A stretch of DNA of 63,928 bases, filler included, from Collodictyon triciliatum (GCA_043381765.1; 7 parts of 7 records of this genome joined end to end with filler, not necessarily neighbours in it); one strand, 5' to 3'. Numbered from the whole stretch's first letter, positions 40,427 through 41,440 are shown. Made by a program: numbers and translations. The notes: a model not told the origin generated them from the letters alone.

Positions 40427-41440
40427 TCAGCAGAAGACAAAGTCGTGGTGGTCGTGGTTGGGGGCCCAGACAAAGACGTTTGGGATGCGGGGGTCTCTGG
40501 TCAGGTGGCCGTGGTCTGTGCTGAGGAAGGGGATGGCGGCGGACGGCACAAAGTGCGCCGCGTCCCGGTCCTTGGTCAGCCGCTCCGCCAGCTTCTCGTA
40601 GTACGCCCGCTGCCCCGGCGGCACCCGCGCCCACCGCTGCGACATGTCCTGCAGGAACGCCCGGTTGTTGATCACCGCCCCGTTCCCCACCAGCTGGTTC
40701 CGCACCTCGATCGAGAACGCCAGGAACGCGTTGATCGGCTTCTTGCGCCCCGTCCCGCCTCCGATCCCACTCCCACTCCCACTCCCACTCCGGTTGTGGC
40801 TGTGGCCTGTTCGCCGCGGTGCCTGTTGCCTGCGTCCTCCTTTTGTCGGTGGCTGTGGCTGTGGCTGTGGCTGCAGTTGTGGCAGCGGTGCGTACGCGTG
40901 GAAGGCGTGCGTTGTGTCGCTTGCCGGGGCTGTCACTGTGGCTGTGGCTGTGGCTGTGGCCTGGCTCTCCTGACTGTGGGACTGCGAGTGCGTGTGGCTG
41001 TGGGATTCGAGGAAGGGCTCGGCAGAGGAGGAGGCGTGGTCGTCCGGCTGGGTCAGGGACAGCAGCGAGTGCAGCAGCGCGTCGGACGCGTCGGCCGCTT
41101 CGTGCAGCCCCGCCGCCTGTGTGGGGCACGAGCAGTGTGCGTAGGCGTAGGTGTAGGTGTAGGCGTAGGTGCATGCGAAGCCCAGGCCGCTGCAGCACGA
41201 GGGGCACGCGTACGGCGCGTGGGAGTGTGGCTGTGGCTGTGGCTGTGGCTGTGGCGGATGCTCGGCACTCATGTCTGCCGGCGTCTCTGCGGAGGACGGA
41301 TCCAGCAGCGTGGCGAGATCGACGACGGCCGGGTCCAGCCACTCGTGCCACTCGCCCCCTGCGGCACGCGCGGTCCCCGCCCCAAACGGATCCAGGCACA
41401 GGACGTCGCCGAATGGATCTGCGTCTGCCCCCTGCGTCAT
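40427..41440 (-). CDS. HMG-box transcription factor (SOX/MATA_HMG-like), paralog B, very GC-rich
   Basis: ORF 40427..41518 (first ATG 41440) encodes RKKPINAFLAFSIEVRNQL...INNRAFLQDMSQRWARVPPGQRAYYEKLAERL, preceded by a low-complexity, dipeptide-repeat N-terminus. Confidence 0.85.
   Translation of the reverse strand: MTQGADADPFGDVLCLDPFGAGTARAAGGEWHEWLDPAVVDLATLLDPSSAETPADMSAEHPPQPQPQPQPHSHAPYACPSCCSGLGFACTYAYTYTYAYAHCSCPTQAAGLHEAADASDALLHSLLSLTQPDDHASSSAEPFLESHSHTHSQSHSQESQATATATATVTAPASDTTHAFHAYAPLPQLQPQPQPQPPTKGGRRQQAPRRTGHSHNRSGSGSGSGIGGGTGRKKPINAFLAFSIEVRNQLVGNGAVINNRAFLQDMSQRWARVPPGQRAYYEKLAERLTKDRDAAHFVPSAAIPFLSTDHGHLTRDPRIPNVFVWAPNHDHHDFVFC

Follow-up and report, generated by a model that had tools for sequence, protein, structure and literature searches.

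Organization of the window and location of the two genes

The window, i.e., the whole stretch of DNA that was analysed, comprises 63,928 nucleotides of Collodictyon triciliatum (GCA_043381765.1) and is made up of seven pieces, linked by N44-TTAATTAATTAA-N44 and arranged in order of descending length; the first six are whole scaffolds (9905-9926 bases), and the last is cut at 3821 bases. The bulk of it is of 28-40% GC and rich in microsatellites. Two frames that encode an HMG box are located on the minus strand, gene A at 40427..41617 and gene B at 27511..27981, and since the linkers separate the pieces, A and B come from different scaffolds, in agreement with an earlier note on this DNA. A third copy of gene A or B was not found in the window by tblastn, all other matches having E values of at least 0.56. 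Two copies in about 60 kb are a weak argument for an expanded family, because the window was picked after the fact.

Gene A carries an HMG box followed by a tail and is transcribed

Gene A is a frame of 396 codons bounded by stop codons, with in-frame ATGs at 41440 (M60) and 41272 (M116) and the terminal stop codon at 40427-40429. The Pfam HMG_box profile matched residues 292-350 with 29.1 bits (cut-off 25.4; E 1.3e-6), and the box itself, KKPINAF...ERLTK, for which AlphaFold2 predicted three helices, spans residues 292-349 (40571..40744, minus strand). A spacer of 28 residues (40487..40570, minus strand), inside which there is a small shared F-L..D element, leads from helix 3 to the tail motif IPNVFVWAP (40460-40486); in the alignment with gene B the motif extends to a shared D (+11) and a shared F (+15), i.e., over 40439..40486 of the minus strand. 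No further Pfam family was found in gene A outside the box, including the 221 residues upstream of it. The part before the box (40778-41440) is of low complexity, with PQ, HS, AT and SG runs encoded by hexamer repeats and a Cys/Tyr-rich stretch.

The frame of gene A is 68% GC (GC3 0.79) and sits in a GC-rich island (40390-41790) of about 1.5 kb, which has 53-75% GC per 100 bases compared with 30-45% beyond it. Third codon positions over the HMG box are G-rich (G3 20-23 of 30 in codon windows spanning 286-345) and flip to C-rich in the tail near 40570 (C3 24 and G3 2 of 30, codons 361-390).

A 476-base contig of run X1 covers positions 40397-40753 with 0 differences and no gap. The same run contains spliced contigs of a neighbouring gene on the plus strand (46549-49391), in which ankyrin repeats are joined to a Rh/ammonium-transporter domain and GT..AG introns of 101-213 bases have been removed, so that X1 is an RNA run. 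Hence, the transcript runs without an intron or other interruption through the box, the spacer and the tail of gene A into the beginning of the 3′ UTR. In addition, the metatranscriptome contig X5 is identical to gene A over 41031-41213, within the N-terminal portion of the protein, two metagenomes (X2 and X4) contain DNA contigs identical over 40375-40705, and short contigs identical to gene A are present in freshwater and lake metagenomes from other studies. The comparison with RNA and metagenome data covered the scaffold of gene A and was made with contigs, not reads, and it is therefore silent on depth or copy number; the sequencing-run shares were all at most 0.29. High depths at 40090-40420 and 41414-41744 (X2, X4) sit on microsatellite-like repeats and are uninformative.

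Gene B is probably a last exon

Gene B is an open frame of 156 codons that contains no in-frame ATG ahead of the box and shows an acceptor-like ...tatcag at about 27973. Its box, KRPINAF...QQLTK (residues 39-96; 27694..27867, minus strand), was recognized by Pfam HMG_box over residues 38-97 (37.2 bits, cut-off 25.4; E 4e-9), by HMG_box_2 (31.8 bits, cut-off 22.4), and in the AlphaFold2 model and the Foldseek comparison described below. The tail motif, IPNTFVWVP, is found 30 residues after ...LTK at 27577-27603, and with the shared D (+11) and F (+15) it covers 27556..27603 of the minus strand. An assembly gap of 372 N (28014..28385) is located just upstream of the open frame and may conceal the 5′ exon or exons of the gene, and the frame probably represents the final exon of a gene with an unassembled start. 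Gene B could also be a dead copy, although its frame and its box are intact.

The tail motif is better conserved than the box

BLASTP aligned the two proteins over box and tail with 41 identities in 115 positions (36%; E 8e-18), and there is one Pfam box above the cut-off in each frame, which agrees with the description in the earlier note of two divergent HMG-box paralogs. Within the box 24 of 58 residues are identical, and the invariant columns of our alignment (A1) fit the pattern that the note had drawn for both genes. The spacers that follow ...LTK are of 28 residues in A and 30 in B and, the small element mentioned above apart, have nearly nothing in common. After them both proteins carry the consensus IPN(V/T)FVW(A/V)P..D...F, again as described, and 7 of the 9 motif residues are identical, so that the motif is better conserved than the box. 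The absence of an HPxYKY tail, which had also been remarked upon, holds for both proteins: no such stretch follows helix 3, and the Pfam match ends at profile position 60 of 69 in A as well as in B. The tails are mildly acidic rather than basic, with a net charge of -2 to -5 and 6-7 W/F/Y/L residues per 39-residue tile.

All six identical tail residues for which alternative codons exist (I, P, N, V, P and D) are encoded differently in A and B, and the GC3 over box and tail is 0.92 in A compared with 0.51 in B. Since codons and composition differ, the motif is held by selection on the protein and not by recent copying, and with this difference in GC3 a recent event of gene conversion does not account for the shared residues. 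Between the tails of A and B, the best match over 9 residues (7 identities) was reached by 2 of 5000 composition-preserving shuffles of the tail of B, in a test that takes in neither the colinear position of the motif nor the shared D and F downstream. As judged from these two sequences, the tail motif is conserved at the protein level, and because only two members are known this rests on a single comparison.

Relatives of the box were found, and none of them carries the tail

With a profile built from box plus tail, HMMER was used to search 1.84 billion representative proteins, including the NCBI and UniRef eukaryotes. The search retrieved 317 proteins with E values of 0.001 or less, 10 of them at 1e-10 or less and none at 1e-30 or less, which were generic HMG boxes, and proteins with several boxes occupied the top ranks. 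Among the matches listed, when ranked by the best single box of each protein, the best outsider scored 45.6 bits, compared with 213 for A and 241 for B, and the nearest named ones were uncharacterised HMG-box proteins of Kickxellomycotina (Coemansia, Tieghemiomyces and Mycoemilia) with 33-42 bits. None of the best 150 of the 317 hits matched any of three loose patterns for the tail; in 4 of these 150 the alignment reached profile position 95 or beyond, and none of the four carried the motif. The earlier note had put forward the tail motif as possibly new, and this search of box and tail leaves that suggestion standing.

The clusters nearest by features were Mucoromycota HMG families, one of them labelled MATA-HMG, whose values of 0.88-0.89 are under the 0.9 mark of the tool and make them leads only. 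A word-indexed protein search with gene B gave 7 candidates, none with an E value of 0.01 or less, and covered proteins of 85-273 residues only. Among metagenome contigs there were 292 pattern matches, two loci of which passed tblastn, and no genuine relative; the two loci were judged spurious, as the alignment was of 37 residues with a gap of 7, lacked the PINAF start and the tail, and lay in DNA of 58% GC. The scan of viral contigs gave 60 pattern matches and no relative, and in the literature searched the motif strings turned up in 2 papers, both unrelated to the subject. Within the collections searched, and in the protein library among the best 150 of the 317 hits, neither the tail nor the subfamily that it marks thus has a detectable relative, and this absence may partly reflect poor sampling of the lineage.

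The box is of the sequence-specific type

The Pfam scores given above place both boxes in the HMG box superfamily (PF00505), and the AlphaFold2 models have the three helices of the HMG fold in both, with a pLDDT per block of 77-88 in A and 78-87 in B. In the tail the pLDDT was 31-45 (A) and 35-41 (B), values that say little about disorder because the models were made from six-row alignments, and in neither protein was the tail docked confidently on the box. The six-row alignments (A3 and A4) replaced one of 30 rows that included short library hits (A2), which was dropped because the second boxes of two-box proteins fell under the tail and the tails were out of register. A predicted complex between box plus tail of A and box plus tail of B scored 0.00 in both runs and was given no weight either way.

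When the model of gene B was compared with known structures by Foldseek, the first match was SOX2 (6yov_L; probability 1.00, target-normalised TM 0.70, rmsd 2.6 over 65 columns), followed by the boxes of SOX11, SOX5 and SRY; the SOX2 and SOX11 boxes at the top had a probability of 1.00 and target-normalised TM values of 0.63-0.70, the set of the four as a whole had probabilities of 1.00-0.99, target-normalised TM values of 0.58-0.72 and 24-27% identity, the identity to SOX/SRY chains over all alignments was 19-27%, and no match had an E value of 0.001 or less, the best being 6.7e-3. In a profile search of the PDB with box plus tail the LEF-1 box (2lef) was best (E 4.2e-8, 36.6 bits, profile positions 11-66), and HMGB1 box B, HBP1, BBX, SOX30 and Capicua came after it. 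All these matches were on the box, and no best stretch went beyond profile position 84 of 137.

A start of the (R/K)PxNAF type marks the sequence-specific SOX/TCF/MATA class of boxes, as opposed to the HMGB/UBF class. Each of the two proteins has a single box, and its start, KKPINAF in A and KRPINAF in B, aligns with KKPLNAF of LEF-1. Together with LEF-1 as the best solved relative and the SOX boxes at the top of the Foldseek results, this bears out the assignment of both genes to the sequence-specific type that had been made from the start of the box. The box is therefore of the LEF-1/SOX/MATA type, but the proteins fit neither the SOX nor the TCF/LEF family, and for MATA_HMG the nearest hits, from early-diverging fungi, are leads only.

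Comparison with known HMG-box systems

LEF-1/TCF proteins resemble A and B in their single box with a KKPxNAF start. However, gene A has no Pfam domain upstream of the box and therefore no β-catenin-binding domain, neither protein carries a basic tail or a C-clamp after the box, the tails being net acidic, and the 36.6 bits of LEF-1 are far below the 213-241 bits within the A/B family, so that A and B are not TCF/LEF members. SOX and SRY boxes are the closest folds to the model of gene B, but for membership in the SOX family 50% identity to SRY is the rule, and here the identity was 19-27% and the profile scores 17-24 bits, the HPxYKY-type end is lacking, and the Pfam match stops early as described. 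With the fungal MATA_HMG proteins (CDD cd01389), which include members that are not mating-type genes and the expansions in early-diverging fungi, A and B share a single box of the sequence-specific type; the fungal hits nevertheless had box scores of only 24-42 bits, and none among the best 150 of 317 had the A/B tail. For the α1 box (MATalpha_HMG, PF04769) gene B scored 13.1 bits, compared with a cut-off of 28.1, and gene A did not match.

Two short motifs came up as likenesses of the tail, the HP1-type PxVxL and the Groucho-type WRPW. The former was dropped because PNVFV occurs in A only, B having a T at the central position, and the latter because WRPW is in neither tail. An acidic activation domain was also considered, for which the rule of Staller et al. 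2022, as relayed in PMC10550315, asks for a net charge of -9 or lower and at least 7 W/F/Y/L in a 39-residue tile. By this published rule, which none of 358 tiles in A and none of 118 in B passes, an acidic activation domain was ruled out for the tail and a classic acidic activator is not indicated. The most acidic tiles in the part of gene A before the box (five listed, with starts at residues 85-89) have a net charge of -8 and 6 W/F/Y/L, just below the rule.

Sequence-specific HMG boxes are described in PMC5344332 as usually needing a helper, such as the partners of Sox proteins, the C-clamp of TCF or the C1 domain of Capicua (CIC), and the case of CIC is presented there as one in which a separate conserved element can be required for DNA binding by the box. 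According to the same source, C1 has 40-45 residues with an invariant core of 11 and is found only in CIC, at a long distance from the box. The C-clamp binds zinc. The likeness of these elements to the A/B tail is one of possible working and not of membership. The core of the tail is of 9-16 residues and is located 28-30 residues from the box, it has no sequence match to C1 or the C-clamp, and the CIC chains were matched on the box only (6jrp at profile positions 9-69, 7m5w at 11-68), so that A and B do not belong with Capicua HMG-C1.

Proposed role of the tail and alternative readings

We consider it, on balance, probable that A and B are old paralogs in a lineage-restricted subfamily of single-HMG-box regulators of the LEF-1/SOX/MATA type, and that their tail is a conserved docking motif. 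Like its relatives, the box would contact DNA in the minor groove and bend it, and the tail segment, which is probably disordered on its own, would most likely be a short docking motif, recruiting to the DNA-bound box a partner common to both proteins. This partner might be a co-regulator or a neighbouring DNA-binding factor, and the near-equal spacing in the two proteins points to a fixed distance between the motif and either the partner or the box itself. The docking reading is based on a motif that is hydrophobic and aromatic, flanked by prolines and embedded in a mildly acidic segment of low pLDDT.

A fixed spacing, however, suits at least equally well an element that acts on DNA together with the box, and a tail that cooperates with the box was ranked second, after the docking motif. 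The tail would then be part of the DNA-binding module and would fold on or beside the box when on DNA, either replacing the missing C-terminal end of the minor wing or adding contacts as C1 of Capicua does. The early end of both Pfam matches, with no HPxYKY-like stretch after it, and the position of the motif at 28 and 30 residues from helix 3 across an unconserved spacer are in line with such a module, as are the aromatic residues of the motif (F and W), since aromatic residues pack the minor wing in SOX and SRY boxes. A precedent is provided by CIC, as described in PMC5344332. We nevertheless hold this to be unlikely, if well worth keeping in view, since AlphaFold2, run without DNA, docked the tail confidently in neither protein (pLDDT 31-45), the PDB profile matched CIC on the box only and nothing past position 84 of 137, and the tail is not basic. 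A bolder version, in which the box and an FVW tail at a fixed distance make up a new two-part recognition module, a fourth route of targeting beside Sox partners, the TCF C-clamp and Capicua C1, within an expanded family of deep-branching protists some members of which would specify cell or mating type, strikes us as improbable.

The remaining readings concern the origin of the pair rather than the working of its tail. In the earlier note A and B were taken for possible alternative alleles of a mating-type locus, and in favour of idiomorphs or a sex-linked pair the two proteins are indeed highly divergent and yet clearly related; in fungi it is HMG-box genes of this kind that specify mating type (PMC2999568), and in brown algae they are reported as sex determinants (PMC12592211), and the nearest clusters were of Mucoromycota, one of them MATA-HMG, if below the 0.9 mark. 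Yet the type of box alone does not predict a mating role, as most of the 12 HMG-box genes of Podospora are described as not being mating-type genes (PMC3730723). In the comparison of the two scaffolds tblastx found two segments, the box and the tail, and blastn nothing, the flanks available for comparison being short (on the 3′ side of A 337 bases, on the 5′ side of B about 2 kb including a gap). With no flanking similarity over these short flanks, a strong difference in base composition (GC3 0.92 versus 0.51) and both genes in one assembly, the idea of idiomorphs gained no support, and we regard a mating-type or sex-determining pair as very unlikely. The same absence of common DNA outside the coding box and tail speaks against a repeated mobile element or an integrated virus as the carrier of the genes; this would explain two copies in about 60 kb, on 2 of the 7 pieces, and the location of gene A in a GC island unlike its surroundings, but gene B is not GC-rich, the 60 pattern matches among viral contigs included no relative, and the probability that we give to it is slight. 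Least credible of all, to our mind, is a match of the tails by chance, or a decaying pseudogene as one of the copies. Only two sequences exist and the frame of gene B has no start codon, but few shuffles (2 of 5000) reached the observed match, the motif is colinear and followed by the shared D and F, and both frames are open to a stop codon shortly after it. Thus, of the lineage-specific family with its own tail that had been envisaged, the family is upheld by two members, one of them transcribed, and its mating-type part found no support in what could be tested.

Sequence-specific HMG-box factors govern sex and cell fate in animals, fungi and brown algae, and to our knowledge little is known of such factors in deep-branching protists. 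A subfamily with a tail of its own could reveal how else a DNA-bending domain of weak specificity acquires partners or becomes more specific, and box plus tail provide a concrete marker with which these regulators can be counted and traced in the genomes of the lineage. To a domain family as well known as this one, the finding adds modestly.

Other features in the window

On the ankyrin-Rh gene (46642-48260), contigs of run X1 show 17-18 mismatched letters per 456-673 bases relative to the window, compared with 0 of 357 on gene A (40397-40753), a contrast that a difference of strain, allele or paralog could explain. A tRNA gene is located at 44839-44910 on the minus strand (Rfam, 67.6 bits), and beside it the region 44062-44800, which has a very high summed contig depth (985 in X1 and 181 in X2), may be a repeat or a conserved element. 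A long polycystin-like gene (10380-15524, minus strand), in which a REJ domain (E 7.8e-45) and a GPS motif (E 1e-9) were recognized, terminates at the edge of its scaffold in an SQ microsatellite that is coding. An open frame of 489 codons rich in S, T, P and Y (21167-22633, minus strand) has no Pfam family, and there are exon-sized matches to RPC5, a subunit of RNA polymerase III (17160-17834; E 1.2e-7), and to a phosphatase of the NIF/CTD type (24770-24964; E 1.1e-4).
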